Shown here one piece after another: positions 447 to 58,500 of a stretch of DNA of 64,000 nucleotides. The stretch lies in the IMG/VR virus record IMGVR_UViG_3300045988_183660. The stretch is one strand, 5' to 3'. The DNA comes from a virus. The notes beneath the pieces were generated by a model that ran no database searches, had not been told where the DNA came from, and was given only the letters and a program-made list of their open reading frames with translations. How positions within the stretch are numbered: position 1 is the stretch's first letter; every line of letters begins with the position of its first letter. The position numbers and the translations under genes were made by a program.

Positions 447-1091
447 ATGAATGTGAATTTTTCAAAAGTATTCTATCATGGCAGTAGGGATGTAGTAACT
501 GAACCTGATTTAGAACATTCAAGAGTAGATATAGATTTTGGCATAGGATTTTACCTTACACAGGATGTTGTAATGGCAGAAAAATGGGCTTCTACTAAAA
601 ACAAAGCTATAATTAACTCATACAATTTTAATCCTGATGGTTTGAAAATATATGAGTTTAAATTAGATAAAGAATGGCTCGAATATATAAAAGCTAATAG
701 AAATTCTGATAATGAAGAACTATTAAACCAGTACAGGGATTATGATGTGCTAATAGGAGCTACCGCAGATGATAAATTATACGATACAATTAGTGATTAT
801 ATGGATGGGATTATAACGGCTAATGAAGCTATTAAATACTTAAATATAGCTAAATATAGTAATCAGGTTGTATTAAAAAGTCAAAAAGCAATTGAACAAT
901 GCAAGTTTGTTGAAGCCCGTACATTACCAGAAAAAGACGCTTTATTAATCAGGCAAATGGCATCCGAACAAAGAAAGAAAGTTGCTGCACAATTAAGAAT
1001 AATGAAACAGCAGGATAGAATTAAAAGAGAACAGTTAGAAATAATGGAAGCAAATAAAATAAAAAAAGAGAGGAATGAGTATGAAAGATAA
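447..1091 (+). CDS. DUF3990-like protein with a PARP/ART-like HGS...FG.GFY...A..WA motif
   Basis: N-terminal VFYHGSRDVV...DFGIGFYLTQ...AEKWA resembles the PARP catalytic His-Gly-Ser and the FGKGIYFA region. Starts 6 nt after the upstream stop. Confidence 0.5.
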   Translation: MNVNFSKVFYHGSRDVVTEPDLEHSRVDIDFGIGFYLTQDVVMAEKWASTKNKAIINSYNFNPDGLKIYEFKLDKEWLEYIKANRNSDNEELLNQYRDYDVLIGATADDKLYDTISDYMDGIITANEAIKYLNIAKYSNQVVLKSQKAIEQCKFVEARTLPEKDALLIRQMASEQRKKVAAQLRIMKQQDRIKREQLEIMEANKIKKERNEYER

Positions 1092-1575
1092 AGATATTTT
1101 TACCGAACGATACTATAATGGTGATGATTTCCTTATTTTGCATGGTAAATCATGTCCTGATGAAATAAAAAGACCTATAATAAAATCATTTGGAAGAGCC
1201 TGTCGTGCTGTAAATACCCGCTACAAGTTATCTATTATAGATTTCATATATGAATTTCTAAAGTCTGATATTGCTAAAACATATCAGTATGATTATACAT
1301 TGTATTCTCAGGGAGATAGGTGCATTGCCGGTAAGATTCTTGATGCTCTTAATAAAGATAATATAAAGCATGTAGATGATGATACAGCATTGGCAGATGA
1401 AGAAGTGGCTTACTGGCTTGGATATCTGATTATGTCGTGGATATATGAAGATGATTGTGAACCGGCGGATTTGCTTAAATATGACTGGGAGCGAATATAC
1501 TGGGGATATGATGTATTGCATACTACAAGCATTAAGTATACAATAGAAGCAATTAAAGATGATATGACAAAATAA
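1075..1575 (+). CDS. DUF3791-like protein (usual genomic partner of DUF3990)
   Basis: Overlaps the upstream stop. The C-terminal W..YDVLHT..I.Y.IEAI region resembles DUF3791 from memory. Confidence 0.35.
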   Translation: MSMKDKDIFTERYYNGDDFLILHGKSCPDEIKRPIIKSFGRACRAVNTRYKLSIIDFIYEFLKSDIAKTYQYDYTLYSQGDRCIAGKILDALNKDNIKHVDDDTALADEEVAYWLGYLIMSWIYEDDCEPADLLKYDWERIYWGYDVLHTTSIKYTIEAIKDDMTK

Positions 1576-5507: not shown

Positions 5508-6119
5508 ATGTTGACGATATTAACAGGAAAAAGTGGAAGTGGAAAAGACAGATTAAAGAAAGAATTAGTAAAAAGGGATTATGAACCTGTATTAAGCCTG
5601 ACTACAAGGCAGCCAAGAGAAGGTGAAAAATACGGATTAGATTATATATACACAGTAAACGAATACTTTGAAAGTTTATTAGAGCAGGATAAATTATATG
5701 AAAGTAGAAAAGTCGGAAATATATATTATGGTACATTAAAATCAGACCTTGATATGGTAAAGCATAATCCTGAAAAAGATTATATAATGATAAAAGACCT
5801 TGAAGGTGCTGAAGATATAATTGACTATATAGGACAGAAAAATGTATTTGTAGCATACATAGATGTATCAGATGATATAAGAAAGAAAAGAGCATCTATA
5901 CGCAATGATTTTTCTGAAGAGAAATGGAATGAAAGGCTTGAATCGGATAATAAGCAGTTCACACATGAAAATATAGACAGAGTAGTTGATGTAATCTTTC
6001 ATAATGATAAGGATATAGATAGTCTTGTAAAGGATATAGATGAGACTATAAGCAGGATAAAGGTTAATATATCAGTACCAAAAGGAAGATTCAGAGATAC
6101 ATTTGACAGAGAACTATAG
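5508..6119 (+). CDS. guanylate kinase-like P-loop kinase
   Basis: GKSGSGKD P-loop, then SLTTRQPREGEKYGLDYIYTV and GNIYYGT blocks as in Gmk. Confidence 0.55.
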   Translation: MLTILTGKSGSGKDRLKKELVKRDYEPVLSLTTRQPREGEKYGLDYIYTVNEYFESLLEQDKLYESRKVGNIYYGTLKSDLDMVKHNPEKDYIMIKDLEGAEDIIDYIGQKNVFVAYIDVSDDIRKKRASIRNDFSEEKWNERLESDNKQFTHENIDRVVDVIFHNDKDIDSLVKDIDETISRIKVNISVPKGRFRDTFDREL

Positions 6120-6120
6120 G

Positions 6121-6150
6121 CAGCAGATTTTTTCTGCTGTCTTTTTACTT
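6121..6150 (+). terminator. rho-independent terminator
   Basis: CAGCAG...CTGCTG stem followed by a T-run. Confidence 0.55.
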
Positions 6151-6275
6151 AGAAGTAAAGGAATTTGAACCTCTCATGGCTAAAGCCACGAGATTCTTGG
6201 GAACTCCTTTCTATTGAAAAGATATTTACCAAGCTAACCCGATAGTTCCTACCGTTTTTATTTATTCATTTATGC
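6150..6275 (-). ncRNA. putative TnpB omega/right-end RNA scaffold (IS right end)
   Basis: Structured non-coding region immediately 3-prime of tnpB. Known biology of IS605 TnpB. Not folded here. Confidence 0.3.
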
Positions 6276-7373
6276 TATTTCTAATAGCCTCAATCCTTCA
6301 TTTAGAATATTGATAGCAGCATTTACATCTCTATCGTGGTGAGAATGACAACAAGGGCAATCCCATTCTCTTACTGAAAGATTTTTTGTATCCTTATTCA
6401 CATAACCACATACATTACAAGTTTGAGAACTTGCATAGAATTTATCTACTTTAATAACTTGTCTACCATACCAATTTGCTTTGTATTCAAGCTGTCTTAC
6501 AAATTCTGACCATGATACATCTGCAATAGACTGGGCAAGTTTATGATTCTTAATCATATTCTTTACTTGTAAATCCTCCAAGCAAACAACACCATTGTTT
6601 CTAATTATTTCAGTAGACAATTTCTGTAAAAAGTCTTTTCTCTGATTTGCGATATGTTCTTGAAGTCTTGCAACTTTTATTCTTGCCTTATTACGATTTG
6701 AACCACCTTTTGATTTTCGAGATAGTTCTCTTTGTAATTTTACAAGTTTATCCAATGACTTCTTTAAGTATTTTGGATTTTGAATCATTTCGCCATCAGA
6801 TGTAATACAAAATTCTTTAATTCCCAAATCAATCCCAACTGAATTGCTGGTTTTCTCAAATGGTTCAATATCCACATCAGTACAGCAAAGCGACACAAAA
6901 TATTTTCCACTTGGTTCTTGTGATACTGTTGCATTAAGAATCCTGCCTTGTGGTACTAACTTGTTTTTCGTCTTTACCATTCCAAGCTTAGGTAACTTAA
7001 TGTATTTATCACAGTATTGAATATTTCCATTTACGCATTTTGATTTATATGAAAATCTATGTGTTTTCTTTGACTTGAATTTAGGATAACCAGAATGTTC
7101 TTTTAAGAATTTCTGATAAGCTGAATCCAAATCTCTAAGTGAGGATTGAAGAGCAGTGGAATCGACTTCTTTTAACCACTCTAATTCTGATTTTAACTTC
7201 TTCATATCATTTGCACACTGAACATATGAGAATGTCTCTTTGTTTTGTTCATACATTTCAATTCTCTTGGCAAGATATTTGTTGTATACGAATCTGCAAC
7301 ATCCAAAAGTCTTAGAGATTATTTCTTGTTGTTTTTTGTTTGGATAAATGCGATATTTATAAGCCTTTTCCAC
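6270..7373 (-). CDS. tnpB: TnpB (OrfB, RuvC-like RNA-guided nuclease of IS605 family)
   Basis: 367 aa. C-terminal CNVCGY...[19 protein letters not shown] zinc finger and RuvC-III region. Confidence 0.85.
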
Positions 7374-7379
7374 TACTTT

Positions 7380-7784
7380 TTACCTCGCTTTTTTCTGATT
7401 TTGAATATACTTCCTTATTTGTTCTTCTGTATTTTCTGATACAGTCGCTACAAAATAGCTAGGATTCCACAAATGTCCACTCCATAATTTCCCTTTTAAT
7501 TCTTCTCCAAATTCTTTCATAAGTAATCTTGCTGATACACCTTTTAATGCTTTCACCATGTCAGGTATATAATGTTGTGGAGAACAATTTATAAGAAGAT
7601 GAATGTGGTCTTTATCTGTATTACATTCTAATATTTGAAATCCATTATCATCTGCTATTTTACTAAGTATATCTATTAATCTATTCTCTATTTGTTCCGT
7701 AATTATTTTGTGTCTGTATTTTACACACCAAACGATATGGTATTGTATTGAATATACATATCCACGTCCATGAGTTACTTCCAT
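7380..7784 (-). CDS. tnpA: IS200-type Y1 HUH transposase TnpA
   Basis: 134 aa. HIHLLI HUH motif and conserved Y near the C-terminus. Confidence 0.85.
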   Translation of the reverse strand: MEVTHGRGYVYSIQYHIVWCVKYRHKIITEQIENRLIDILSKIADDNGFQILECNTDKDHIHLLINCSPQHYIPDMVKALKGVSARLLMKEFGEELKGKLWSGHLWNPSYFVATVSENTEEQIRKYIQNQKKAR

Positions 7785-8018
7785 ATATTATCACCTCATA
7801 ATTATGATAACATATGTATATTACAAAATCTAGTATTTTCAATATATTACAATGTATTTTTATTTAACATATGTATATAAAAGAAATGCCGTAGAGCATG
7901 AACTCTAATCTATTATTTAAAATAAAAATTGAATACATAACTATAAAAAAGCCTTTTTACAATTTTTTGTAGAAGGGCTTTTATTATAATGTAAGCATAA
8001 AAAATAAAAGGAGTACTT

Positions 8019-8582
8019 ATGTATAAAAAGAAAATTGATAGAACAAAAGAAGAAAGAACAATGAACAATGGAATGAAGGCTGTTATTATAGCTTACAGAA
8101 ATGCTCTAGATATAGATGTTCAATTTGAAGATGGTACTATTGTAACAAATAAACAATATGAAAATTTTAACATTGGCAGTATTAGAAATCCCAATATAAA
8201 GAATCTCAATATAAAGAATCTTAAACTATTAAAGAATAGAAATAATAAGATGAAAGAAACCAGAGTTATGAACAATGGAATGAAGGCTACTATCATAGCT
8301 TATAGAAAAGCTATAGATATAGATGTTCAATTTGAAGATGGTACTGTTGTAACAAATACATACTACAGTCATTTTTTAAAAGGCAATATAAGAAATCCTA
8401 ATCTTCATAAAGGCGAAACTAATTTAATGAAATGTGGTCAGACTGCTATTATTACAGATTATAGAAGACCTAAAGATATTGATATACAATTTGAAGATGG
8501 TACAGAAGTTAAGCATACAAATTATGACCGCTTTAAAGCCGGCGTGATTAGAAATTCTAGATTATTAAAAAAAATAGAATGA
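8019..8582 (+). CDS. tandem-repeat protein (3 x about 60 aa NNGMKA.IIAYR...DIDVQFEDGT.V.N..Y..F..G.IRNPN)
   Basis: Internal protein and nucleotide repeats are visible. Function unknown. Confidence 0.45.
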   Translation: MYKKKIDRTKEERTMNNGMKAVIIAYRNALDIDVQFEDGTIVTNKQYENFNIGSIRNPNIKNLNIKNLKLLKNRNNKMKETRVMNNGMKATIIAYRKAIDIDVQFEDGTVVTNTYYSHFLKGNIRNPNLHKGETNLMKCGQTAIITDYRRPKDIDIQFEDGTEVKHTNYDRFKAGVIRNSRLLKKIE

Positions 8583-8604
8583 AAGATATTGAAAGGTAAA
8601 AGAA

Positions 8605-8967
8605 GTGCTTATGTTTGAAGTAATTAATGAAAAAGTAAGAATGAAATATGATAAAGTGTATCATGGTACAAGCATGGAAAGACTGGAAAAAATCAGAGAG
8701 ACCGAATATATAACAGCAATAGATGATGTATATGTTTCAAATGACATTAACATAGCTGCCAGATATAGTTGGCAAAAAATCAGTTTAAAAGAAATACCAG
8801 TCATTTTAGTTTTTGATATAGATACATTACTAAAAAATAATATTAATATATATAGTTTTGACGGTGTAGATTCAAATAAGTATTTAACTGATGATATTCC
8901 TGCTTATTGTATTTCTCAAATTATCACTCAGGATTCACCACAATACCCTTCAAAGTGGAAAGGTTAA
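8605..8967 (+). CDS. small ART/PARP-like (YHGTS ... GVYVS ... AARYS) protein, copy 1
   Basis: Motif arrangement parallels the DUF3990/PARP HGS...G.Y...S pattern. Has a paralog at 9846. Confidence 0.45.
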   Translation: MLMFEVINEKVRMKYDKVYHGTSMERLEKIRETEYITAIDDVYVSNDINIAARYSWQKISLKEIPVILVFDIDTLLKNNINIYSFDGVDSNKYLTDDIPAYCISQIITQDSPQYPSKWKG

Positions 8968-8985
8968 AATAAAGGAGATAAAAAC

Positions 8986-9207
8986 ATGGTATATTTTAAT
9001 GAAACTAATAAATATTTTAATGGAACTAATAAATTTAACAAAAAGACAGATGGGGATTATATAATAGCAAAAATGTCTGCTTTATCTGAATCATTAACAA
9101 AAACTGAAAAAGACCTGATAGCATTAAAAGAAGATATAACTAATGCACAAAATATTCTTTCAGATATGAAAAACAGGTATCAGAAAAATAGAAACACACT
9201 TTCGTAG
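8986..9207 (+). CDS. 73-aa coiled-coil partner protein, copy 1
   Basis: Lies 18 nt downstream of the ART-like gene. Has a paralog at 10221. Confidence 0.4.
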   Translation: MVYFNETNKYFNGTNKFNKKTDGDYIIAKMSALSESLTKTEKDLIALKEDITNAQNILSDMKNRYQKNRNTLS

Positions 9208-9211
9208 TGTA

Positions 9212-9541
9212 ATGTATAAAGGAGAAAAAATGTTAAATAAAGAAGTATTTGAAAAATTCGGAATGGAAAACTGGGTTATAGAAGAAAACTTATGTTACCT
9301 TTTACAGGAATATGCTGAAAGACTTGGAGTTCCAAATCCATATAGTCCTGTAGCGTTTGTAAAGGATTTCATGCAGGAAGAGACTTATGTAAATACTAAA
9401 TATGCTGAAATGAGTGCTGTTAATACAGCAAAGAAGAACATTGTAGCTGATTATGAAGAAGGAGAATATAAAGAAGTTCAACCGTCAGAAACAACAAATA
9501 AAAGCTTCAGGAGAGATTTTTATGCAGATAAAAGTAGATAA
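9212..9541 (+). CDS. hypothetical protein
   Basis: ORF with an RBS. Confidence 0.4.
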   Translation: MYKGEKMLNKEVFEKFGMENWVIEENLCYLLQEYAERLGVPNPYSPVAFVKDFMQEETYVNTKYAEMSAVNTAKKNIVADYEEGEYKEVQPSETTNKSFRRDFYADKSR

Positions 9542-9821
9542 AGAAGATATAATTAATATGATAAAAGGCGGCGGAACTCATGGCAGTTATTCATGGCTTA
9601 ACTGGCTTGAAAGTAACGGTTATGCCCGCTATTATGACCAGTACTGTAAAATGGACTGGAATGAGGAAAAACTTCGTAAGCTAAGTATTGAGGAATTATA
9701 TAAATTATATATAGATATGAAGACTAAGAGTAAGTGTGACAGACCTGTTTCTGTAAAGAAGGCAGATAAAACTGAAGGAATGGCAACAGCTGCACTTCTT
9801 CAATTATTAAATTCCAAATAA
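9522..9821 (+). CDS. hypothetical protein (start chosen at MQIKVDKED with an RBS, rather than the track start at 9453)
   Basis: GGAGAG RBS 8 nt upstream of ATG 9522. Confidence 0.4.
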   Translation: MQIKVDKEDIINMIKGGGTHGSYSWLNWLESNGYARYYDQYCKMDWNEEKLRKLSIEELYKLYIDMKTKSKCDRPVSVKKADKTEGMATAALLQLLNSK

Positions 9822-9845
9822 TACAAAATCAAAAAAGGAGAAAAT

Positions 9846-10202
9846 ATGTTCCAAAAAATAAATGAAAGTGTAAAAGAAAAGTATAGTAAAGTGTATCATG
9901 GTACAAGCATGGAAAGATTAGAAAAAATCAGAGAGACCGGATATATAACAGCAATAGATGATGTATATGTTTCAAATGACATTAACATAGCTGCCAGATA
10001 CAGTTGGAATAAAATTACTTTAAAAGAAACACCAGTTATTTTAGTTTTTGATATAGACACCTTATCAAAAAATAATATTAATATATACAGTTTTAATGGC
10101 GTAGATTCAAATAAATATATAACTGATGATATTCCTGCTCATTGTATTCTTGAAATCATCACTCAGGATTCATCACTTTATCCTTCAAAATGGAAAGTTT
10201 AA
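9846..10202 (+). CDS. small ART/PARP-like (YHGTS) protein, copy 2
   Basis: About 90% nucleotide identity to 8630-8967. Confidence 0.45.
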   Translation: MFQKINESVKEKYSKVYHGTSMERLEKIRETGYITAIDDVYVSNDINIAARYSWNKITLKETPVILVFDIDTLSKNNINIYSFNGVDSNKYITDDIPAHCILEIITQDSSLYPSKWKV

Positions 10203-10220
10203 AATAAAGGAGATAAAAAC

Positions 10221-10442
10221 ATGGCATATTTTAATGAAACTAATAAATATTTTAATGGAACTAATAAATTTAACAAAAAGACAGATGGGGATTATATAAT
10301 AGCAAAACTGTCTGCTTTAACTGAAGCATCAATAAAAGCTGAAAAAGACCTGATATCGTTAAAAGAAAATACAACTAACGTACAAAACACTCTTTCGGAT
10401 ATGAAAAACAAGTATCAGGAAGATAGTAACACACTTTCGTAG
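10221..10442 (+). CDS. 73-aa coiled-coil partner protein, copy 2
   Basis: About 90% nucleotide identity to 8986-9207. Confidence 0.4.
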   Translation: MAYFNETNKYFNGTNKFNKKTDGDYIIAKLSALTEASIKAEKDLISLKENTTNVQNTLSDMKNKYQEDSNTLS

Positions 10443-10599
10443 ATAAATAATATTATTTTTATTTCTAAATATTATAAAAAGGCTTTTTTACAATATAGGG
10501 CAAATAAGCATATGATAAACTAACATTAACAAAACAAAAAAGAAACAAAGAAAGGATTTTTTAAAGAGATATTTCTTTAAAAAGCAAGGTAAAAGAAAC

Positions 10600-12165
10600 A
10601 TGGAAATTGGAGTTATTATTGGAGTTGTAGTTGTTGCGTTAATTGCATTATTATTTGCAAGTTATATTAAAGCACCAACAGATAAGGCACTTATTGTATC
10701 AGGACTTAGAAAAACACCTAAGTATGTAATTGGAAGGTCATCACTTAAGATACCATTTTTACAGAGAGTAGATAAGCTTGATTTAAAGATGATAAGTGTT
10801 GATGTAAAGACTAAGGAATCAGTACCAACAAATGAGTATATCAATGTTAATATTGATTCAGCTGTTAAGATTAAGATTGGTTCTTCACCTGAAATGCTTG
10901 GTAAGGCTGCAAGCAACTTCCTTAATAAAAATTCAGATTATATCAGGGAATCTGTTGTAGATGTACTTGAAGGTAATGTCCGAGAAATTATAGGACAGAT
11001 GAAGCTTGAAGATATTGTACAGGACAGAAAGTTATTTGCAGAAAAGGTACAGGAAAATGCTGCACCTGATATGGAAAGAATGGGTCTTGAAATTGTAAGC
11101 TTTAATGTTCAGAATGTTACAGATGAAGGTAATGTTATTGAAAATCTTGGTATTGACAGAGTAGTAAGTATTTCTAAATCAGCACAGATATCAAGAGCAG
11201 AATCAGAAAGAGATATTGCAGTTGCCAAGGCTAATGCTGAAAAGCAGGCTAATGATGCAAGAATCGAAGCTGAGACTGCTATTGCAGAAAGAAATAATGA
11301 ACTTGAGATTAAGAAGCAGGAATTAAAGAGAGCAGCAGATGTTAAGAAGGCTGAAGCTGATGCAGCATATGAAATTCAGCAGCAGGAACAGAGAAAGACA
11401 ATTGAGATAACTACTGCTAATGCTAATATTGCAAAGCAGGAAAAGGAAATTGAGTTAAGAGAAAAGGAAATCACTGTTAAGGAAAAGACACTTGATGCTG
11501 ATATCCGTAAGCAGGCTGAAGCTGAAAAGTATGCAGCACAGCAGAAGGCAGATGCAGAACTTTATCAGAGACAGAAGGAAGCAGAAGCAAAACAGTTTGA
11601 AATCCAGAAGCAGGCTGAAGCTAAGAAGTCACAGGCAGAAGCAGACAGATTTGCTAAGGAACAGGAAGCCGAAGCAGTTAAGGCACAGGGCTTTGCTGAA
11701 GCAGAAAGCATTAAGGCAAAGGGTATTGCTGATGCTGAAAGTATTAAAGCTAAGGGATTAGCTGAAGCAGAAGCTATGGAGAAGAAAGCAGATGCCATGT
11801 CTAAGTATGGTAAGGCTGCCATGACTGAAATGATTATCAAGGTACTTCCAGAGATGGCAGGAGCTATTGCAAAACCATTAGAAGCTATTGATAAGGTAAC
11901 AATCATTGATGGTGGTAATGGTGAAACTGGTGTAGGTTCATTTAGCGGTAATGTACCATCAGTACTTGCAAAGACAATTGAATCTGTTAAGGAAACAACT
12001 GGCTTTGACCTTACAGAAGTAATGAAGGCAAATACATATGATGCTAAGACAACAAAGAATGTTAATTTTACAGGTATTCCGGAAGACACAGACCCGGAAA
12101 TTAAGGTGACTGTAAAGAATGTTCCTGAGAAAGTGTCTAAGTCAGAAAAGAACTCTGCTAAGTAA
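10600..12165 (+). CDS. flotillin-like SPFH/band-7 protein (FloT/YuaG-type)
   Basis: N-terminal TM helix, an SPFH region, then a long A/E/K-rich coiled coil. Visibly higher GC than its neighbours. Confidence 0.8.
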   Translation: MEIGVIIGVVVVALIALLFASYIKAPTDKALIVSGLRKTPKYVIGRSSLKIPFLQRVDKLDLKMISVDVKTKESVPTNEYINVNIDSAVKIKIGSSPEMLGKAASNFLNKNSDYIRESVVDVLEGNVREIIGQMKLEDIVQDRKLFAEKVQENAAPDMERMGLEIVSFNVQNVTDEGNVIENLGIDRVVSISKSAQISRAESERDIAVAKANAEKQANDARIEAETAIAERNNELEIKKQELKRAADVKKAEADAAYEIQQQEQRKTIEITTANANIAKQEKEIELREKEITVKEKTLDADIRKQAEAEKYAAQQKADAELYQRQKEAEAKQFEIQKQAEAKKSQAEADRFAKEQEAEAVKAQGFAEAESIKAKGIADAESIKAKGLAEAEAMEKKADAMSKYGKAAMTEMIIKVLPEMAGAIAKPLEAIDKVTIIDGGNGETGVGSFSGNVPSVLAKTIESVKETTGFDLTEVMKANTYDAKTTKNVNFTGIPEDTDPEIKVTVKNVPEKVSKSEKNSAK

Positions 12166-12183
12166 AAAGAAATAAATTTAAGG

Positions 12184-12218
12184 ACAGGTTGAGAAATAAT
12201 CAGCCTGTACTTTTTTAG
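12184..12218 (+). terminator. rho-independent terminator
   Basis: ACAGGTTGA...TCAGCCTGT stem followed by a T-run. Confidence 0.5.
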
Positions 12219-12282
12219 GCTTAATTATATAAATATGCCTTCTTGGATTTTGTATAATTAAATAAATCAAATATATAAGGAG

Positions 12283-13041
12283 ATGACGGATATGGTAGAA
12301 GTAATAAAAGAAGATTCATTTGCAAAGAGTGATATAAGATTATTAATGAATGATAAGAATATAAAGATAACCGAATTATGCAATCCTACAGGCAATAGAT
12401 TGACAAGAGAAAAAGAATATAAGGATTATTATAATAAGCATATAAAAGGCAAAGATGATACAGTATTTCTTACAAGAGCTTATATCTTAGAAGAAGAGTT
12501 CCCTAGAGATAAATGGTGCTTAGACTATGAAAAGCAGTATGAAAATAATAAAGATAAGAATGTAATTAATGACATAGAAATACTTACCAGAGAAAGTGAT
12601 ATGTTAAAAAGAGCAGGCTTTGTGGATATTAATGAATTATCAGATTTTGAATACAGCAGATTGTTTGTGTATCCAAATGAAGCCGGTAAGAAAGTAATTG
12701 ATAAAGTGTATGGTGATGATGAAAGAAAAAAACTATTTGCCATGATTGAAACGACAACTAAAAATGAGATACAGAAGATAATAATGGACTTTGATAATGG
12801 TATTATAGATATTAAAGAACCAAGAGATGAACAGGGTGAGCCGGACTATTACGGTGAGTTTGAACTTTCCCTTCCTAAAGGCTATAAAGAAACAGGACTT
12901 GAGATGTCTGTACTTATGTGGATGAATGATTATTGTGACTTTGAAACACTTTTAGAAAACTGTAAGGGATATGAAAATGACATAAATGAATCATTAAAGC
13001 AGAAAGTTATTAAGAAAAATTTAGAAGATAAAGAAAGATAA
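12283..13041 (+). CDS. hypothetical protein
   Basis: ORF with an RBS (AAGGAGATG). Confidence 0.4.
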   Translation: MTDMVEVIKEDSFAKSDIRLLMNDKNIKITELCNPTGNRLTREKEYKDYYNKHIKGKDDTVFLTRAYILEEEFPRDKWCLDYEKQYENNKDKNVINDIEILTRESDMLKRAGFVDINELSDFEYSRLFVYPNEAGKKVIDKVYGDDERKKLFAMIETTTKNEIQKIIMDFDNGIIDIKEPRDEQGEPDYYGEFELSLPKGYKETGLEMSVLMWMNDYCDFETLLENCKGYENDINESLKQKVIKKNLEDKER

Positions 13042-13390: not shown

Positions 13391-13804
13391 ATGACAATAA
13401 GAGAATTAAGAAAATTAACAGGCATGTCACAGAGCCAGTTTGCAAAGAAATATGATATACCACTTAATACATTGCAGCATTGGGAAGGTGGCTATTCAGA
13501 ACCAGCAAGATACTTAGTAAAATTAATAGAAAGTACAATATGCAAAGATAGAAAAGTAATACAGGGAAATAATACTAAAGAAGGAACAATGTATTATTAT
13601 GATGAGCTTAATAAGCTTGTATATGATAATAAGGGCAATTGTTTAAGTCTTGAGATAGACCTTGATGCTACAAGTGAACATAATTTAGGTTTATATCTGG
13701 ATTTTATGTTTGAAGATTATTATAAAGCAAAAAAAAGTTTTGAAGCCCATCTTGATGCAGATAAAAAATCGGATGAAGATATTATATGGGAAAGATTATG
13801 GTAA
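13391..13804 (+). CDS. hipB: XRE-family HTH protein, HipB-like antitoxin
   Basis: N-terminal LRKLTGMSQSQFAKKYDIPLNTLQHWEGG HTH. Lies immediately upstream of hipA. Confidence 0.55.
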   Translation: MTIRELRKLTGMSQSQFAKKYDIPLNTLQHWEGGYSEPARYLVKLIESTICKDRKVIQGNNTKEGTMYYYDELNKLVYDNKGNCLSLEIDLDATSEHNLGLYLDFMFEDYYKAKKSFEAHLDADKKSDEDIIWERLW

Positions 13805-13817
13805 AGGATGTGATTAT

Positions 13818-15032
13818 ATGAGTAATGGAACATATTATTTAATGCATAAAGATATTCCAGTTGCTATTATGCAGCTTGAAGAAGATGATATTAATGCCAA
13901 GCCTTATAAAGTAACAATTAATGCTAAAAACATAGAACATCTTCCAATAGGTGCGAGAATGAATAACATGAAATTTATTGAGTGGTGGCAGGATAGAACT
14001 ATACCCAAAACGAGGCAGGGGGCTAAGAGTGCGTTAGAAAGGCTTGAATATAAGTCTGTTACCAATGCTATGATAGATAACCTTGCCTTAAGTCTTAATG
14101 ACTGTTATTGGATAAAACCATTGGATTCAGACCTTACATGGAAGGATGTTAATTTATTTTCCAATAAGTTTGAAGACAGATTTGGCGAATTAACTTTTAA
14201 TAAAGATTCCGGCTTGGATTTAAGAAATAAGACTAAATTTAAGTTTGCTGTATCTCAGGGAGAAGTACAGAAAAAATGGTGTATAGACAGTGAAAACAGA
14301 CGTTATATGGTAAAAGGCAATTATGGTACATCATATCAGCAGAGTATTAATGAAGTATTTGCGACTAAATTACACGAAGCTCAGGGCTTTGTGAATTTTA
14401 CACCATATTATTTCACTAAAATTGAACTGGAAAATAATATGACTGGACTTGGCTGTTTTTCTTATAATTTTTGCAATGAAAATATTGAAAGCATTTCGGC
14501 ATGGGAATTATTGCAGACTGTTAAAATAAAGCAGAATATGTCATTATATTATCCGTTTAAGCAGATATGCCTTGAGATGGGAATGAAAGAAGAAGACTTT
14601 GACTATTTCATGGATTATGAGATAATGACTGATTTTCTACTTACTAATACTGACAGACATATGAATAATATAAGTATATTAAGAAATCCTGATACACTTG
14701 AGTTCTTAGGCTTTGCTCCTATCTATGACAGTGGTAATTCAATGTTCTATTCAGTTCCTACTAATAAACTTAACAGTGTACATCTTGGTCAGGATAAGGT
14801 ACATTCATTTATTACATCACAGGAAAACAGACTATTATCATATGTAAAAGATAGAAATGTAGTAGACTTATCAAAATTTGATGATATATCTTTTTCGATA
14901 TATGAGAAAGATACTGAACCGAACAGAAGCATAATGCTTGAAGAAATGTTTTATAAGAAAGCTGAAGCTTTAAGAAGCTTTCAAAAAGGCAAAAACATAT
15001 GGAAACCTAAAACTGTACAGATTGAACATTAA
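13818..15032 (+). CDS. hipA: HipA-like Ser/Thr kinase toxin
   Basis: LLTNTDRHMNNISIL (HipA catalytic D.H..N) and APIYDSG motifs. Start at ATG 13818 with an RBS, 13 nt after the hipB stop. Confidence 0.65.
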   Translation: MSNGTYYLMHKDIPVAIMQLEEDDINAKPYKVTINAKNIEHLPIGARMNNMKFIEWWQDRTIPKTRQGAKSALERLEYKSVTNAMIDNLALSLNDCYWIKPLDSDLTWKDVNLFSNKFEDRFGELTFNKDSGLDLRNKTKFKFAVSQGEVQKKWCIDSENRRYMVKGNYGTSYQQSINEVFATKLHEAQGFVNFTPYYFTKIELENNMTGLGCFSYNFCNENIESISAWELLQTVKIKQNMSLYYPFKQICLEMGMKEEDFDYFMDYEIMTDFLLTNTDRHMNNISILRNPDTLEFLGFAPIYDSGNSMFYSVPTNKLNSVHLGQDKVHSFITSQENRLLSYVKDRNVVDLSKFDDISFSIYEKDTEPNRSIMLEEMFYKKAEALRSFQKGKNIWKPKTVQIEH

Positions 15033-34585: not shown

Positions 34586-37500
34586 ATGAAGAAAGGTTTA
34601 ATGAGTATGAGAAACAGATTTAAACGATTTTTTACTATGGTACTTGCTATTGTTACATTTTTTACTTCTATACCATTAAGTAATCTTACCTTTACCAAGG
34701 CTGATTCGGCAGTTGCTAATAATGGTGAAGAAGATGACTATTATATCAATGTAACTATTGACCTTGATGGCGGTACTGCTGATGATATCTATTATGAATC
34801 TCAGGTTGACAGAGATGGGGCTGGATACAGTGCAGGTCAGTGGGTAAGTAAATTTGGTGCTGGCAAAACATTTCTTGATAAGCATGGTAAAAAGCATACT
34901 GTAGCAGGCAGGGGAGCAGATGACCCATGTGAAGGCTCGTTTGTAGTCCGTGCTGATGCAATTGGTGTTACACCTCATGTTGTTATAGCAACTCCTACAA
35001 AAGAAGGTTATACATTTGCAGGATGGGATACTAATGCAAGTGTTAATAAATATGGCAGTGATGATGCATTTGATGTAGGATGCTGGAATCCGGGAAGCAT
35101 AACAATTACAGCTTTATGGAAAAGAGATACAGCCAACATGACAGTGTACTATGATTCAGGTGTAAAATATGTTGGTTCAGATGGCTATAGTGATGATTAT
35201 GATTTCACTTATAGCGGTCAAGACCATAATTTTCCATTAAATTCAACTTTACAGACTAATGTACATTTAAAAGATGGATTTAATATGGTAGGTTTTCAGG
35301 AAGATGCTGTTGCAGATGGTTTTGTCTGGAATGGCTGGAAGACTAATCCGGATTATCCTAATGTATATTTTGATTCATGGACAATGGATACGAACAGAAG
35401 TATAAAGGTAATTACTAATACCACATTAAGTTTTGAATATGATGAAGGCTTTGAAAATACTGCACATACTGAAACAGTACAGACAGATGATAAGTACTAT
35501 GATTATCCAAAGCTTAAGCAGAGTTATGAACTTGATTATGTAGAAGATTTGGATACCGAAGAAAAGTGGTATACATATGATGGCAGAAATAATAATGGTT
35601 CATATATATACTGGACAGCAAACCGTCCTAGAAGGGTAAAGTATCATTCAAAGCTAAAGGAAAGTGCAAAGAATACACTTAACTTAGACCAGAATGGTGC
35701 AACCACAAAGGGAACAGAAAGAGTAGACGTATATCAGGGTGTAAAGATAGATGATATCACAATACCTAAGAAAGAATATACAGCTACATTTTTTGACGGT
35801 AATAAGAAAGTACATGATGATATCATCAATAAGTTTAAATTCCTTGGATACTGGAATGATACTAAATATGTATGGGAAAAAGATACAACCGGATATGCTG
35901 ATTTCTTTGAAACTGGACTGCCAAACGATTCAGATACAGTAGATACTATTAATGGTAACTATGGAGATGCATATTATTTTGATTTATATAGTGAAATAAC
36001 CGGTACTGCCAGTACAGCTAATTTTACGGGGCGTTTAAATACATATAATAAGAATCTTAATACATGGATGAATTTTTCAATACGAAATACACCTAGTCAG
36101 AAAATAAGGGTATCCATGCATGTAAATGGTGTTGGTATAATTGAAACAGAAGATGGTACAAAATGCCGTCAGTATTCATTTGAATTATCAAGTAATGAAG
36201 AAGTTAATGTCTTTGTTGGTGGAAATGTAGAGATATATTTCTATAAAGAAACTTCTGGAAATGCAGAATTTTATATGGAGTTTCCACAGAAAAAAGAATT
36301 AACAACAGGCTACTGGTATGATGAAAATGGTAAAGGATTAATTGAATATCCATTATCAAGAAATCATACTATAACAGCTAAATGGAGTGGAGATAATATA
36401 ACTTTACCAGAAGCACCTGAAAAAGAAGGCTATACATTTGTCGGATGGCGTACTGAAGATGCTAAATTGATGACTTCTGAATGGGGTAATGATGATTCTG
36501 ATTATCTTGACTGTAAGAATAATTATGGTGGAGATGTAGCTAAATGGTTTAAAGCCAGTAGGGAAGGTAAAACTAACTATGATGTTAAACACATGTATTT
36601 AGTGCCAAATTCATATTATCTTAATGATGAAGTAATGCATTTTCAGTGGTATTACGTTTATTATGCCGGAGATGAAGTAGGACTTAGTAAAAACACAAAA
36701 TTTATCGCATGTTATGATGAGATTCCAAAGGTAACTGTTAAATTTGAATCAGGCAGTGATAATACATCTGAATATAATCAGAAGTATGATTTAACAGTAT
36801 ATGAAGGACAGTCATTAAAAATACCTGAAGAATCAGCAAGCTATTATAAAGGACGAAAATATGTAGTAAGCTTTGATAATAAAGGCATAGGCACAACACC
36901 TGACAGTATAAGTGGTAATGCACCATTTGATTACTGGAATGTAAGAAGTGGTATAGATGAAGATGCAGATGAATTTTTTGCAGGAGAGACAATACCAAAA
37001 GTAAATAAAAATGGTATCTTAAGTGCAATATATAAAGATGTTGAAATCAGCAATTTACCAATATTAAGTGCAGATGGCTATATATTTGAAGGCTGGTATG
37101 AAGATGCAGACTATACAATAAAAGCAGATAAAGTAAGTATAGACGGATATGGATATAACGCATTGGATGAGCCAGAGCTAATCACATTGTATGCGAAGTG
37201 GAAGAAAACAAGTGCCACATTGCGTACAGTAGGTGAAGAAGGAATAGCAGAAACGAACTATTCAGAAAGTACACAGATAGAAAAAGGCAGTATAGTACGA
37301 ATAGAAGCAAAGCTTAGTAAAGGATATGTATTTAAAGGCTGGTATAATGGAGATGTAATTATCAGTAATGATTTAAGTTTTGATTATACTATGCCGGATG
37401 AAGATACAGTTCTTACAGCTAAAGCAGAACCAAAATGGTATGTACTTACCTTTGACCCTAATGGTGGTATTTTAAAGAATCCGGGAGATAATTTATATCC

Positions 37501-40500
37501 ATTAGATAAAAGCAGAACTAATTATGTATATACTCAGTGGAATAAGAGCTTCTATGCTTATATGACCGGTGATATACCAACAAGAACAGGTTATAGATTT
37601 GCAGGCTGGTATTTAGGAAATGAAGCAGTATTTAGTAAAACCGGATATGCTTTATATAATACAAGTTTGTTTAGTTATGATACTGATTATCATTGGAGAT
37701 ATGACGGTAATGTAACTGTAAAGGCTGATTGGGAACATATTAAATATACTGTAAAATATGCAACAACATATGGTACAGGAAGTATACCTGATGAAGTATA
37801 TAATTATAGAGATGAATTTATATTAAAAGATGGAAATGCCTTTAAAAAGGATGGATATGAATTTGACCACTATTTTGTAAGACGTGAATCAGATAATAAA
37901 GTATATTGTGTAGATGGTGTATGGCATAGTACAGATGAAAGTGACAGTTATGGAAATAACAGTGCTAACTGGTATGACAGATATTATACCGGTAAGAAAT
38001 TCACAATGGATGCAGCATGGGTAAGAACAGATACAACAGAAGATGAAACATTTACATTCTGGGCTTTTCCAAAACCATGTAAATATACAGTTACATATTA
38101 TGCTAATGGTGGTAATCATTCAGATGGACAGACAAAATGGACAGATACAGCCACATATGATACAAAGTATGATACATGGCGTAATGGCTTGGTACGAAAC
38201 GGATATGAATTTATCGGTTGGAATACAAAAGCAAATGGAACTGGAACATGGTGGGCTACTAAGAATGAAAAAGGTACAAACTGGACACAGAAAACAGATG
38301 GTTTATGGTATTTTACAGGAATCTGGAATACAGATAATGGATGTCCTTTATCAGATATAGACCTGTATGCAGTATGGAAACCGGTTGAATACAGTATCAC
38401 TTATAACTTAGATGGTGGTATAGTAACTGTAAAGAATCCTATAAGTTATACAATAGAAACGAATACATTTACATTAAATAATCCTGTTAAAGCTGGATAT
38501 TCATTCGTTGGATGGACTGGCAGTAACGGAACAACACCACAGAAAACAGTAACAATATTAAAGGGAAGCATGGGTAATAAGACATATACCGCTAACTGGG
38601 TAAAAGATAAAACAATTAAGTTTAAATCGGTTGGACATGCAGGTGAAGAATATAATTCAAAACTGGATGTATCAGTTGCAGCAGGTAAGTCTTATAAAAT
38701 ACCTGAAGAATCAGTTAATTATTATAAAGGTAGAGGATATACTGTTAAATTTAATAACAATGGTATAGGTACAAAACCTGAAGATATAACCGGTAATGCT
38801 CCATTTGATTACTGGAATGTTGAAAGTGGTATAGATGAAGATGCAGATGGATTTTATGCAGGTGAAACAATACTAAAAGTAAACCGTGATGGTATATTAA
38901 GAGCTGAATTTAATGATATTAAATTTAGTGATGATGATTTACCAAAACTTACAGCAACAGGCTATATATTCAGAGGATGGTATACTGATGAAGGTTTAAA
39001 TCATAAAGCAAGTGACGGATATCTTATAGATGGTAACGGATATAATGTTTTAGATAAACCTGAAGAAGTAACACTTTATGCAAAATGGGAAGCTTCTGCA
39101 AACCAGTATACAGTAGAACATTATCTTATGAACTTTGATGGTAAATATGATGATGTAGCATCATATATAGATACATATGCAGCTAAAACAGCTGAAAGTG
39201 TAACACCACCAGTAAGAACATTTGAAGGTTTTACAAGCCCTGAAACACAGACTGTAACCGTAAAACCGGATGGCAGCACTGTAATAAAATATTACTATAC
39301 AAGAAATAAATATATATTGGATTTAAACTCTTGGATAGATAATACAAAATATAGTGATTTGCTTTATTACACAGAAGATGAAAATGGCAACAGAAATCAG
39401 TTTATAGCAGCGAAAGCTACTGTAAAGATAAATGGTGTTGAATATGCCAAGGATGTAACAGATTATGAAAGCAGGTATGTATTTTATGGCAGTGAAATTG
39501 AAATGATTATCACACCTGAAACAGGACACACCATAGTAAAAGATGAGACAGTAGATTATACATACAATGTATATGAAAATGTCGCAACTATTAAACTTAC
39601 AATGCCAGCTTCAGATAAGGAAGTTGCACCTGTATTGTTTACAGACAGTGTAAAGTATGTTGTAAATCATTATCTTATGAATCTTGATGGAAAGACATAT
39701 ACATTAACTGATACATATACAGGTAAGGCAAAAGCAAACCATTATGTAACACCGGCAGTAAATTCATATGAAGGCTTTACAAGTCCAAATACACAGAATG
39801 TAAGAATCAAAGCAGATGGAAGTACAGTAATAAATTATTATTATACAAGAAATCAGTATTATCTTAACTTAAATGGATATTTACAGTATAAAGATAGAAG
39901 TGAAGATTTTACAGAACTGGTAGAGACAGTAAAGAATCTTAATAATGAAGATGTACGGAATGAATTTGCTACAGCTATAGTTAAGGTTAATGGTGAAATA
40001 CATGAAAACGGAAATAATGTAACAGACTTTTATGAGAAAGTGTTATTTGGAAGTACTTATGAAGTAATTACAACTGCAAAGACTGGTTATACAGTTATAG
40101 ATAACACAGAAACACTTACAGGTGTAGTTGAAGCCATTGATACTGAAACAGGTAATGAAGTAAAACCACATGTTAAAGTAAACAGCTATACAATTAAATT
40201 TGAGCCTAATAAGCCAAGTAAAGCAACAGAAGATATAAGCAGTGTATTAACACAGGATGTATATTATAATCGTGAATATAATCTTAAAAAGAATGAATAT
40301 TCATATATAGGTTATGAATTTATCGGATGGAATACAAAGGCTGATGGAACTGGAACAGCTTATAAGGATGAAGCTGTTATAAAGAATTTAACAGATAAAG
40401 ATAATGATACTGTAACATTATATGCACAGTGGAAGATACATAAATGGAACATAAATGTATACGTCAAGAATGAAAAACCTGATGGAACATTTGAAAATGA

Positions 40501-43500
40501 GACATTATGGAAATCTGAAGAACTGGAATATAATACAGAGTATAATTATACAATCTATAAAAATGATAAGGCTTATGAAGATTTAAGCACAAATGGTACA
40601 ATGCCTGATAATAATGTTGATTTACATTTAACAGCATTAAGAAAACAGTATACTGTAACAGTAAACGGAGATAGTCATATCACAAATACAACAGGAAGCG
40701 GCAGATACAGATATGAATATGAACCTACAATAAGTGCCGAAGTAGAAGTTGGTTATCATTTCCTTAACTGGAATAATAACAGTTCTTTAAATAAAGAAGA
40801 AATGCAGATAAAGGTATTAGGAGATATCACATATACAGCTTATACAGCACCAAATACTGATACAAAATATACTGTAAAGCATTATCAGATGAATTTAGAC
40901 GGAACAACTTATACACTTGCTGATACAGAAAACTTTACAGGAGTAACAGATAAAGAAGTTACACCTAAAGTTAAAAAGTATGAAGGCTTCACAAGTCCTG
41001 AAGCACAGACAGTTACAATCAAGGGTGATGGCAGTACAGTTGTTGAGTATTATTATACAAGAAACAAACGTCATTTTAACATTAGGGGATATATCAATAA
41101 TGTATACAGAGATGAACTTGTTGATATAGTAACTAATCCTGTAACAGGAGAAGACGAAACTCATATAGCCGGTACAATGGTAGTAACCATTAACGGTGAA
41201 GTAAAAGCAAGAGATGTATTAAGCTTTGAACAGGATGTATATTATGGAAGCAAGATTAATATTGTTACAACGACAAAGGATGGCTATATAACACATAATG
41301 AAAATTTAGATATTATTATGCCAAAAAGTAACCATACACAAGTTATAATAATTGAATCAGACACCATAACATATACTGTAAGACACTGGAAAAAGAATGT
41401 TAATACAGATACTAACGTCTATGATGAAAATGTATTAGATGAAAAGAATTATTCTTTAGCTGATACAGAAGTTATATCTGGAAAAGCATACAGTTGGGTA
41501 ACACCAGTTATAAAGACATATGAAGGATTTACATATAAGGCTACACTTCCAAGTGAAGGAACAGCTTATATAAAGCCTGATGGAAGTACAGTAATTGATG
41601 TATATTACAGTAGAAATAAATATGTAATTGACCATACTGATGATTATTTAACAGATGTAGAATATGGTAATGGTATCAAAGATGTAAGTGGATTAAATAC
41701 TTATGAATATGAGCAGGAAGTCATGCTTACAGCTAATTTAAAAACCGGTTATCACTGGCATGATACAGATGACTGTATAAGCAGCATTAAGTATCCTACA
41801 GGCTGGTATAGTAGGGATAATTCAGGTGTTGAAGGAATCTTAAAAGATAACACAACATATGAATCACAGAGTATTAAATTTAATATGCCTGCAAGAGATG
41901 TAAAACTTGGTGTAAAAGCTACAAATAATTCTTATACAGTAGTATATAATGAAAATAGACCTACTGACCCTAGTTCACTTTATAATGTACAGGTTATAGA
42001 TGAAATTAAGCAGGAGTTTATTTATAATGAAAGTCAGAATATAGCTACAAATAAGTTTAATTTAGCAGGATATACAAGAAAGTTAGGCTGGATGACAAAA
42101 CCAAGTACAGATGGTAATGGAACAGCTGATTATGCTTATGGAGAGACAGTAATAAATCTTACTGATAAGAACTTGGATGTAATTAATCTTTATGCAATAT
42201 GGGAAGATAATGCACCTGAAATGCTTGATATAAGTAGTACAAATAATTTTGCAGACACACAGACAGTAACACTTTATGCAAGAGACTTAGGAAGTGGTGT
42301 AGCATATATAAGCTTCACAAAAGACACTGAAAAAGAATCTTATGAAAAGGTTACATGTAGTAATAATGGTGTAGTAACAGTTACAAAGACTATAAATGAT
42401 AATGGTACTTATGTATTAAGTGCTAAAGATAAAAATGGAAAAGTAAGTAAAACTACAATTACATTTTATAAGACAACATGGGATACAAATAAGAACCATA
42501 TCATAGCAGCGGATGGATTAAGTGTAGTAGAAGCTGATTTCACATCAGTTCCAACTGCTTTAAGTACCAAAACAAGTATAAATACAGCCGGAAGTATATT
42601 AAGACCTGTGACAAGCAGGGATGGTGTAGATTTCCTTGGCTGGAATACATCAGACACAGCATTAGCAGGAAATATGAGTATAACAGTAAACTCAGATGGA
42701 GCTTATTATGCAGTATGGATAGATAATGATGTACCTGTAGCAGTACTTGATAATATAACATCAGATATATCAGCAACCCAGACAATAACATTCAGTCTGT
42801 ATGATACAGCTGAAAAAAGAATTGATACTGGTTCAGATATAAAGGGATATTATATAGGTACAAATCCAAAAGCAAGATTAAATGAGTTTAAATCTGTAAC
42901 ATCAGGCAAAGACGGAAGCTTTAGTGGAAAAGAAACAGTTACACTTGATAAGGAGACAACATATTATATATTCCCGGTTGATAAAGCCGGTAATATAGGT
43001 GATACAATCAAATTAAATGGTGGAAATGGTTTATTATTCCATAGAGTAGACTTTGATGCGAATGGAACAGATGAAAGTCCGGCAACAGTAAATGTACCAT
43101 ATGCAGTAATACCACATGGAAGTACAATAACATTGCCAACAGCTTATAGATTAGGCTACCATGATGCGTCTGGAAATGAAGAACAGACAGAAGAAAATGA
43201 TGGAAAGACAGGTTACTGGGGAAACAGTAAAACTGCATCCGTTGGCTTTAATATACTTAAGGTTGATAAAGACTATACAGTATATGCATTATGGAAAGCA
43301 AATAAATATGCAATTATACTTTCAAGCAATAAGCCAATGATTAATAACGGATATAGAGCAAATTCTTTCTATAAACCAACTGGTGATAAAAAGATTATAG
43401 TAACATATGATGAAGAAATACCTTTTGAAAATGTAAATAATCCAAGTTTAACAGGATGGACATTTAAAGGATATGCAAATACCATATTAAGTACAGCTGA

Positions 43501-53159: not shown

Positions 53160-53233
53160 ATCAGACTTAATTTTGCTTCACCTTTGAAACAATAGATATA
53201 TATGTTATAATGTATAAAAGGACGGTAATAATT

Positions 53234-55495: not shown

Positions 55496-55900
55496 ATGAG
55501 TACAGATTCATACATTGTAATTATTCTAATAATATTTTTTGTAGCTATGTTTCTAACTATGTTTAGATTGATACATTTAATATCCGGTCTTATTGCTTGT
55601 TTCGTTGCATTAATGGCAGCTACACCAGTAATGTCTTTTGATGTATATTCTCATACATCATCAGTGTCGCAAATCTCAATACAGGAAATAAATAAAATAA
55701 GTCCAAGGGATAATAGTGATACATTATTCAATGTCACATATACGGATGCAGAAGATATTAATAGAAAGATAACTGTTAAAGAAATAGTTTACGATTCGGA
55801 TACTACATATATTGAAAAGGCAAGAAAAACATTTTTGTTTCTTTATGAGGACAATTATGTGTTACATGAGCCGCAGGAATTTATAAATAATAATAATTAA
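55496..55900 (+). CDS. small membrane-anchored protein, paralog family A member 1
   Basis: TM helices plus the conserved C-terminal domain NVTYTD...K.TVKEI.YDSD.TYIEKARK.FLFLYED.YVLHEP. Confidence 0.45.
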   Translation: MSTDSYIVIILIIFFVAMFLTMFRLIHLISGLIACFVALMAATPVMSFDVYSHTSSVSQISIQEINKISPRDNSDTLFNVTYTDAEDINRKITVKEIVYDSDTTYIEKARKTFLFLYEDNYVLHEPQEFINNNN

Positions 55901-55915
55901 AGAAAGGAAGAATTT

Positions 55916-56314: not shown

Positions 56315-56330
56315 AGGTAAGGAGAAAATT

Positions 56331-56738: not shown

Positions 56739-56751
56739 AAAGGCTTATGAT

Positions 56752-57111: not shown

Positions 57112-57146
57112 GCAACGAGAATAGAGAGTAAAAAGGAGAAAATATT

Positions 57147-58259: not shown

Positions 58260-58272
58260 CGTAGAGCAATGT

Positions 58273-58478: not shown

Positions 58479-58500
58479 AAAGATATAAGGAGCAGAATAT

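Follow-up and report, generated by a model that had tools for sequence, protein, structure and literature searches.

What are the small, duplicated proteins encoded by a 64,000-nucleotide (nt) stretch of IMG/VR virus record IMGVR_UViG_3300045988_183660, and what might they do for the element that carries them? That stretch, analysed here at its full length and referred to as the window, holds two copies (A and B) of a gene pair in which the gene for a 118-amino-acid (aa) protein is followed by that for a 73-aa partner. The 118-aa proteins are stand-alone homologues of the NAD+ lobe of the RNA 2'-phosphotransferase Tpt1/KptA; they lack its N-terminal lobe and have the ADP-ribosyltransferase (ART) fold. 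Here, we propose with moderate confidence, and as the best overall explanation of the locus, that each 118-aa gene is such an N-lobe-less Tpt1 paralogue taking part in an ADP-ribosylation cycle.

The assignment to Tpt1/KptA is based on profile and structure searches that point the same way. Three independent profile libraries give weak, consistent matches to the 118-aa proteins, each covering solely the C-terminal half of Tpt1/KptA: Pfam PF01885 (E 0.009, model positions 98-167 of 177), PHROG 5470 (E 2e-6, positions 94-178 of 183), and NCBIfam NF002013 (E 8e-6, positions 92-180 of 183). The PF01885 score of both copies is 16.5 bits, below the Pfam gathering threshold of 26 bits, and the same model is the common match of seven out of seven members of the family of short proteins to which they belong (best E 9e-5). 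When a profile of this short family was run against PDB sequences, the top 10 matches were all Tpt1, always over the C lobe (among them Runella 7kw8, E 7e-9; Clostridium thermocellum 6e3a, E 2e-7; and Aeropyrum 1wfx, E 5e-5). A hidden Markov model (HMM) trained solely on the C lobes of 19 full-length Tpt1 proteins, and free of short-family sequences, recovered both window genes (E 1.7e-10 and 3.9e-9). The Tpt1 NAD+ lobe is the smallest ADP-ribosyltransferase fold, and the AlphaFold2 (AF2) model of the 118-aa protein (pLDDT 90.9, pTM 0.86) has the split beta-sheet ART core with the NAD-binding His/Arg on the first strand. The top 17 Foldseek matches to this model are all Tpt1/KptA, after which the nearest folds are DarT and Tre-type toxins. 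The public JGI pipeline already labels the protein as TPT1/KptA family, and both window proteins are acidic (pI 4.9-5.6).

These searches also bear on what a preliminary description of this DNA had drawn from the motifs KVYHGTS, DDVYVS, and IAARYS, all of which are present in the 118-aa proteins. Its placement of the proteins in the ART superfamily, with H-G-T as the NAD-binding motif, is borne out by profile search, AF2, and Foldseek. Its more specific parallel with PARP and DUF3990 is not, and we reject that affiliation: hhalign against the DUF3990 protein of the window gives a probability of 4.6%, PF13151 matches neither copy, and the matches are specific to Tpt1. The superfamily was thus right and the branch wrong.

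If the fold is that of the Tpt1 NAD+ lobe, which residues of the enzyme remain? In an alignment with Runella Tpt1, the window proteins keep the adenosine-ribose contacts H99 and T101 (here H18 and T20), G113 (G32), and, on the nicotinamide-ribose side, S125 and D127 (S43 and D45). The HGT motif, which binds the adenosine ribose in the Tpt1 fold, is found in both window proteins and is invariant in the short family, in which the C-terminal 'D-x-V-P' strand of Tpt1 has become an invariant T-D-D-[IV]-P. Tpt1 is active only with an Arg-His-Arg-Arg tetrad, which consists of R16, H17, R64, and R119 in the Runella enzyme (PMC8464070) and is essential both in vivo and in vitro (PMC8464070, PMC12678800); in Thermococcus Tpt1, the R17A, H98A, and R118A mutants are dead (PMC12678800). 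The first three of these residues belong to the N-terminal winged-helix RNA lobe, and the two-lobe architecture is not present here: the proteins are 118 aa long and align only to model positions ~92-181, and an HMM of 19 Tpt1 N lobes found no N lobe in the six-frame open reading frames (ORFs) of the 64-kb window (best E 0.37). The fourth, R119, corresponds to Ile37 in copies A and B; throughout the short family the aligned residue is I, K, or E, as against an Arg in 19/19 full-length relatives in the same alignment. Because the RNA lobe with its Arg-His-Arg is absent and the fourth Arg is replaced, the window proteins are incapable of Tpt1 2'-phosphate or 5'-phosphate transfer and, as judged from sequence, are not bona fide Tpt1 enzymes. 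In Tpt1 itself, nuclear magnetic resonance (NMR) shows NAD+ contacting the C lobe only, with affinity coming mainly from the ADP moiety (PMC8464070). The NAD+ lobe of yeast Tpt1, released by proteolysis, crystallised with intact NAD+ bound (PMC10415124), so that the isolated lobe is a stable nucleotide-binding domain that does not turn over NAD+ alone.

How widespread is a lobe of this kind? Among 1.84 billion cluster representatives, an exhaustive HMMER scan returned only 14 proteins at E <= 1e-3. A word-indexed profile search of 5.8 billion sequences returned about nine short clusters (99-130 aa, E 1e-34 to 1e-47), followed by a large gap and then by full-length PF01885 proteins at E 9e-11 and weaker. 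All short-family members are stand-alone proteins on related elements, and the length of 99-130 aa is constant across four subgroups. No relatives were found in phage and plasmid collections (by megablast and tblastn), in GTDB species genomes, or in IMG/VR. The family is very small and restricted to mobile elements of gut Clostridia that are related to one another, so far in gut metagenomes only.

The clade closest to the window proteins (P0004, P0017, P0018, and P0019; 44-47% identity by tblastn) offers the clearest link to ADP-ribosylation. In all four contigs of this sister clade that extend far enough (L010, L011, L067, and L069), a 302-305-aa ADP-ribosylglycohydrolase (ARH) lies 25 nt downstream of the ART-like gene. 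It matches PF03747 (E 2e-36), carries the GDxxG, TDDT, and DxDT metal-site motifs, and is apparently intact. Upstream there is usually a gene whose 164-aa product has a DxDxT motif and matches HAD weakly (a HAD-like phosphatase), giving a string of HAD-like gene, Tpt1 NAD-lobe-like 118-aa gene, and ARH (L010 5498-7300; also L011, L017, L018, L067, L068, and L069). ARH-type and macrodomain hydrolases strip the ADP-ribose put on nucleic-acid phosphate ends by Tpt1/KptA-like transferases (PMC11833690). Because ARH-type enzymes reverse this modification and an ARH is present in 4/4 sister-clade contigs, the conserved pairing links these proteins with an ADP-ribosylation cycle, without showing which role the small protein has within it.

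The downstream gene differs elsewhere in the family. In the P0006 clade (L012-L015), the ART-like gene is preceded by an RNase H-like gene and followed by a 138-aa gene, and the contig of P0009 (L016) has small ORFs only after the ART-like gene. Lack of conservation of the 73-aa partner with the ART-like gene, which the preliminary description had named as evidence against its own reading, is what is seen at family level: the partner occurs only in the window lineage, and relatives have an ARH, a 138-aa gene, or small ORFs in its place. Among side observations on these relatives, L010 has genes for Thg1 and an RLIG1-like RNA ligase a few kb upstream of its HAD-like/ART-like/ARH string, and L067 has a DUF3990 gene ~1 kb downstream of the ART-like/ARH pair. 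A 166-aa gene that follows DUF3990 in the window (1075-1575) was considered as a relative of the sister-clade HAD-like 164-aa gene, and no link was found. The protein of the sister clade also exists in truncated or chimeric form, as P0005 (138 aa) and P0011 (78 aa): one consists of the C-terminal half only, fused to unrelated sequence, and the other of ~50 N-terminal residues only. Such forms suggest occasional gene decay in some elements.

In the window itself, the ART-like gene and its partner are arranged as follows.

8611-8967, + strand: copy A, stand-alone Tpt1/KptA NAD+-lobe-like (ART-fold) gene, 118 aa (PF01885 E 0.009, PHROG 5470 E 9e-5, NF002013 E 1e-4; C-lobe HMM E 3.9e-9).
8986-9207, + strand: partner A, 73 aa, predicted disordered N-terminus with two YFNxTNK units and then a long helix (ORF).
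9212-9541, + strand: intervening gene, 109 aa, in the conserved backbone of the element (ORF; homologue in L010).
9522-9821, + strand: intervening gene, probably 99 aa (as called in related contigs; the mechanical ORF, 9453-9821, is 122 aa).
9846-10202, + strand: copy B, stand-alone Tpt1/KptA NAD+-lobe-like (ART-fold) gene, 118 aa.
10221-10442, + strand: partner B, 73-aa helical protein (AF2 helix; dN/dS against partner A 0.96).
8611-9207, no strand: direct repeat arm 1, 597 nt, 89.1% identical to arm 2.
9846-10442, no strand: direct repeat arm 2, 597 nt, 89.1% identical to arm 1.
8985-9070, no strand: gene-conversion patch in copy A, covering the 5' end of the partner A gene with its 21-nt tandem units (8991-9034).

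The ORF list, repeat finder, and pairwise alignment confirm the earlier outline of a direct repeat that carries the gene pair, with two ORFs unrelated to the arms in between. The two arms align without gaps at an offset of 1235 nt, and their similarity runs from the ATG of the first gene to the stop codon of the second, with unrelated flanks. Each arm consists of the 118-aa ORF followed by the 73-aa ORF, with the same 18-nt intergenic spacer and ribosome-binding site (AATAAAGGAGATAAAAAC) in both. Copy A would be 120 aa only with a GTG start at 8605; in related contigs the protein is 118 aa, from the ATG at 8611. Between copies A and B, protein identity is 84% for the 118-aa and 78% for the 73-aa proteins. 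The genes from 8019 to 10442 are all co-directional, spaced by 4-25 nt or overlapping, and a promoter/terminator scan found no terminator-like site among them (site count no higher than in shuffled sequence); for these reasons they probably form a single transcription unit. No Rfam families were found at positions 6000-13000. Of the intervening genes, the first (9212-9541) has no Pfam, PHROG, or PDB match, and the second (9522-9821) has matches at chance level only in Pfam, NCBIfam, and PDB scans. Directly upstream of copy A, a 187-aa protein (8019-8582) contains three internal repeats of ~55-69 aa (NNGMKAxIIAYRxxxDIDVQFEDGTxVTN…IRNPN), which belong to DNA repeat family D2, and has weak DUF5780 and PHROG 7955 matches.

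The 73-aa partner was modelled by AF2 as a disordered N-terminus of ~18 aa, in which the YFNxTNK unit is repeated, followed by one 54-residue helix (residues 19-72 of partner B, pLDDT > 90). Partner A is basic (pI 9.2), and neither Pfam, PHROG, NCBIfam, PADLOC, nor PDB gave a match to the partner. The preliminary description had called it a coiled-coil protein; the single long helix is predicted, with a heptad pattern that is fair when assigned by eye from the sequence, and the coiled coil itself is plausible only.

How old is the duplication, and is it still changing? Between copies A and B, the ART-like gene has a dS of 0.34, a dN of 0.098, and a dN/dS of 0.29; because of this ratio, it is under purifying selection. 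Decay of the 118-aa genes to pseudogenes was rejected on the same ratio, the conserved length, and the high confidence of the model. The identical copy-A protein was found in nine metagenome contigs, all of which share the gene order of the window as far as each extends. Five of these (L001-L004 and L007) span both copies, and in 5/5 both copies and both pairs are kept, with no copy-number variant of the cassette seen among the five. In the window and L003, the first ~85 nt of partner A are copy-B-type sequence, identical to copy B of L001; in L001, L002, L004, and L007, partner A carries five substitutions and, upstream, a 1-nt indel; it is also one 21-nt unit shorter, which yields a protein of 66 aa vs 73 aa. 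A Val/Ala codon at position 2 is also swapped between the copies in two haplotypes. Because of the copy-B-type patch and the swapped codon, the segment 8985-9070 bears the signature of gene conversion between the arms. The instability that had been expected of this repeat is therefore seen in part: copy number does not vary in the spanning contigs, and the sequence does, through the conversion patch and the 21-nt unit polymorphism. The two-gene unit was tandemly duplicated before the sampled elements diverged, and the copies are still exchanging sequence. Finally, L010, a more distant element, is syntenic with the window, with homologues of the 109-aa gene (65% identity over 63 residues), the HipA-like kinase (37%), and the 245-aa gene (46%). 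Its 109-aa-gene homologue lies downstream of the ART-like/ARH pair, and its single ART-like gene sits at the position of copy A, which is thus probably the ancestral site.

In light of these findings, what might the 118-aa protein do? A role in an ADP-ribosylation cycle is suggested by the sister clade, whose gene is always placed before an ARH and usually after a HAD-like phosphatase. The protein would bind NAD+ or an ADP-ribose-containing ligand and so join the ADP-ribosylation cycle of the element. As to mechanism, we tentatively prefer a minimal mono-ADP-ribosyltransferase or NAD+-consuming effector of the element. Its action may be reversed by the ARH in the sister clade; in the window lineage, the 73-aa helical protein co-transcribed with it may restrain or target the effector. 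Common to both would be a minimal transferase or NAD+-using effector that is reversed or restrained by its downstream gene, a possibility we rank first among the mechanisms while giving it less than even odds.

Several results weigh against this explanation as a whole. No hydrolase adjoins either window copy, and the connection to an ARH comes through homology with a sister clade only 44-47% identical. The H-H-h motif of Tpt1 (H-H-V, His-His-Val; PMC10415124) reads H18-Y41-K90 in the window, and H-S-V, H-W-N, H-W-S, or H-W-A in other subgroups, a mapping made by sequence alignment only. Neither a catalytic Glu nor an equivalent triad is conserved, and variation at the second and third ART-motif positions within the short family argues that its members have no catalytic centre in common. 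NAD+ is not turned over by the isolated yeast lobe (PMC10415124). The C-lobe Arg mutant of yeast Tpt1, R138A, does not bind NAD+ (PMC10415124), and the same Arg is missing here, so that the NAD+ affinity of the window proteins may be low or their ligand may differ. Acidic proteins such as these are also unlike nucleic-acid-modifying enzymes. As for the partner, its only relatives are a 99%-identical cluster, with none outside the window lineage, and partner A vs B gives a dS of 0.10, a dN of 0.097, and a dN/dS of 0.96, on just 20 substitutions; gene conversion between the arms would account for the low dS.

A non-catalytic function is a possibility almost as likely as the transferase or effector that we prefer, even if somewhat doubtful in its own right. 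The 118-aa protein could be a binder of NAD+, ADP-ribose, a molecule derived from ADP-ribose, or ADP-ribosylated ends, acting as a sensor, sponge, or decoy that blunts NAD+/ADP-ribose-based host defence. What the short family conserves would suit a binder, namely the adenosine-side contacts (HGT and Gly32) and the ribose Ser/Asp only, while the nicotinamide-side and catalytic positions drift. In Tpt1 it is chiefly the ADP moiety that determines NAD+ affinity (PMC8464070), and the isolated yeast lobe holds NAD+ uncleaved (PMC10415124), yet loss of the pyrophosphate-contacting Arg should weaken binding. The gene dosage provided by duplication fits a stoichiometric binder, as does the acidic, small, abundant-type character of the proteins, and the accessory neighbourhood on the mobile element also has a DUF3990 ART-superfamily gene. 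The idea is nevertheless purely inferential: there is no similarity to known sponges, and the ARH and HAD neighbours in the sister clade fit an enzyme pathway at least as well.

A toxin with a cognate antitoxin or immunity protein, the reading closest to the preliminary description, strikes us as unlikely. Here the mini-ART would be a toxin neutralised through binding by the 73-aa protein, the sister-clade ARH would be an enzymatic antitoxin, and the two copies would represent two specificities. The toxin-first gene order with its 18-nt spacer and separate ribosome-binding site would be in keeping with this, although both copies lie within one long co-directional gene string and not in an autonomous two-gene operon. 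DarT and Tre-type toxins are the fold neighbours after Tpt1, but no conserved catalytic residues remain beyond the NAD-binding His, and no PADLOC or toxin-antitoxin model matches. The downstream slot contains an ARH directly after the gene in the sister clade and changes occupant between clades, as immunity genes often do, and six of the 16 differences between the partner helices fall at putative heptad core positions (30, 37, 40, 51, 54, and 68; heptad assigned by eye). The proximity of HipA-like kinases and other conflict genes also speaks for a toxin. Against it, the partner has no DNA-binding domain and no relatives, and most of the family is without it.

Least probable by far, and largely refuted, is that the genes are remnants of a full-length RNA-repair enzyme, either split, with its N lobe supplied in trans, or decayed to pseudogenes: the JGI name TPT1/KptA and the Thg1 and RLIG1-like RNA ligase genes a few kb away in L010 would suit such an origin, but none of the window's reading frames encodes an N lobe, no member has the fourth tetrad Arg, the stand-alone length is conserved across the four subgroups, and the PF01885 score falls short of the gathering threshold.

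What kind of element carries these genes? The window encodes a DUF3990 protein, an AAA ATPase, a guanylate kinase, an IS200/IS605 insertion, a flotillin-like protein, and two HipA-like kinases, together with TraX, a RuvC-like resolvase, a T2SSE/T2SSF-type ATPase and platform, a 3171-aa repeat adhesin, DUF932, a transglycosylase, a glycosyltransferase, and a Pif1/Dda-type helicase. Neither matches to phage structural proteins nor tRNAs were found in the window, and the element has no close relatives among sequenced phages and plasmids. The nearest TnpB relatives are in metagenome-assembled genomes of Clostridia (Christensenella, Clostridiaceae, and Lachnospiraceae). We infer that the window is a large conjugative-type element of gut Clostridia; a phage origin is unlikely, given that T2SSE/T2SSF-like, TraX, DUF932, transglycosylase, helicase, and adhesin genes are found in place of structural-protein matches.

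Several other features of the window were noted. The DUF3990 protein at 447-1091 (E 1e-39; also ART-PolyVal, E 9e-5) is a second, unrelated ART-superfamily gene product, 7.5 kb upstream. The IS200/IS605 (6270-7784, - strand; tnpA 134 aa, tnpB 367 aa) represents a recent insertion polymorphism: the window, L002, L003, L004, and L006 carry it, whereas L001 and L005 lack it and have a 78-aa ORF in its place. The two HipA_C-like kinase genes lie at 13710-15032 and 53210-54493, and the first, preceded by an HTH gene (13391-13804), resembles a HipBA-like pair. The 3171-aa protein (34586-44101) has multiple Listeria-Bacteroides repeat domains (Flg_new, E 3e-46) and is probably a surface adhesin of the element. 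At 55496-60089 and 62447-63284, there are at least 8 paralogous small proteins of 131-139 aa, each with an N-terminal membrane anchor; six share a C-terminal motif (…EI.YDSD.TY[IV]E.K…F[LI]Y.D…[VI]LH) and the pair at 62447-63284 has a separate one, so that the array looks like a diversifying surface or exclusion-type family.

Why might such a protein matter? Tpt1/KptA is known as a two-lobe enzyme, and a conserved family that is under selection with the NAD+ lobe only, every catalytic Arg having been lost, would be proof that the lobe lends itself to reuse on its own. Neither the N-lobe-less, Arg-less architecture, nor the pairing with an ARH or a helical protein, nor the tandem duplication is described in PMC9503650, PMC8464070, PMC10415124, PMC12678800, or PMC11833690. 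Given that the family is found on conjugative-type elements and has an ARH neighbour in the sister clade, it could add a component to the toolkit used by mobile elements in NAD+/ADP-ribose conflict, whether as a transferase, a binder, or a toxin. More speculatively, and with the odds well against it, these proteins might represent a new class of small mobile-element effector derived from Tpt1 minus its catalytic half. It would act either as a stoichiometric sponge or decoy, with ADP-ribose-derived molecules or ADP-ribosylated ends as its ligands, or, in the manner of DarTG, as a new mini-ART with the invariant T-D-D as its catalytic acid and interchangeable neutralisers (an ARH or the 73-aa coiled coil). 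The practical stake is modest, this being a very rare family seen so far in gut metagenomes only.

How do the window proteins compare with known systems? With the DUF3990 protein (PF13151, 447-1091) they share the superfamily and the H-G-[ST] and G-x-Y-x-[ST] pattern, whereas that protein is 214 aa long and of another family, as the hhalign result indicates. DUF952 (CC0527; PDB 2o0q/2jqn) and other stand-alone phage ART-fold proteins of ~100-160 aa (such as Bacillus phage G gp336) have no sequence relationship to them and score far below Tpt1. In DarT-DarG and Tre1-Tri1, the macrodomain of DarG counters DarT and the ARH-type Tri1 counters Tre1. As in these systems, a small ART-fold protein lies directly upstream of a gene that neutralises or reverses it or, in the window and sister clade, might do so, and the sister-clade ARH resembles Tri1. 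Unlike them, the window copies have no macrodomain or ARH beside them, no DarT catalytic motif, and no secretion or Rhs carrier such as that of Tre toxins. The closest comparison remains Tpt1/KptA/TRPT1 (PF01885). Unlike Tpt1/KptA, the window genes are duplicated and carried on a mobile element, and their products are without the N-terminal RNA lobe and all four Arg-His-Arg-Arg residues, read H-Y-K in place of H-H-h, and carry the invariant T-D-D-[IV]-P specific to the short family. In common with its C-terminal NAD+ lobe, they have the HGT motif and, in the same order, the HGT beta-strand, a helix, 'V-x-[LV]-[ST]-x-D', a second helix, the 'P-V-I-L' strand, and the C-terminal '[TL]-D-x-[VI]-P' strand.

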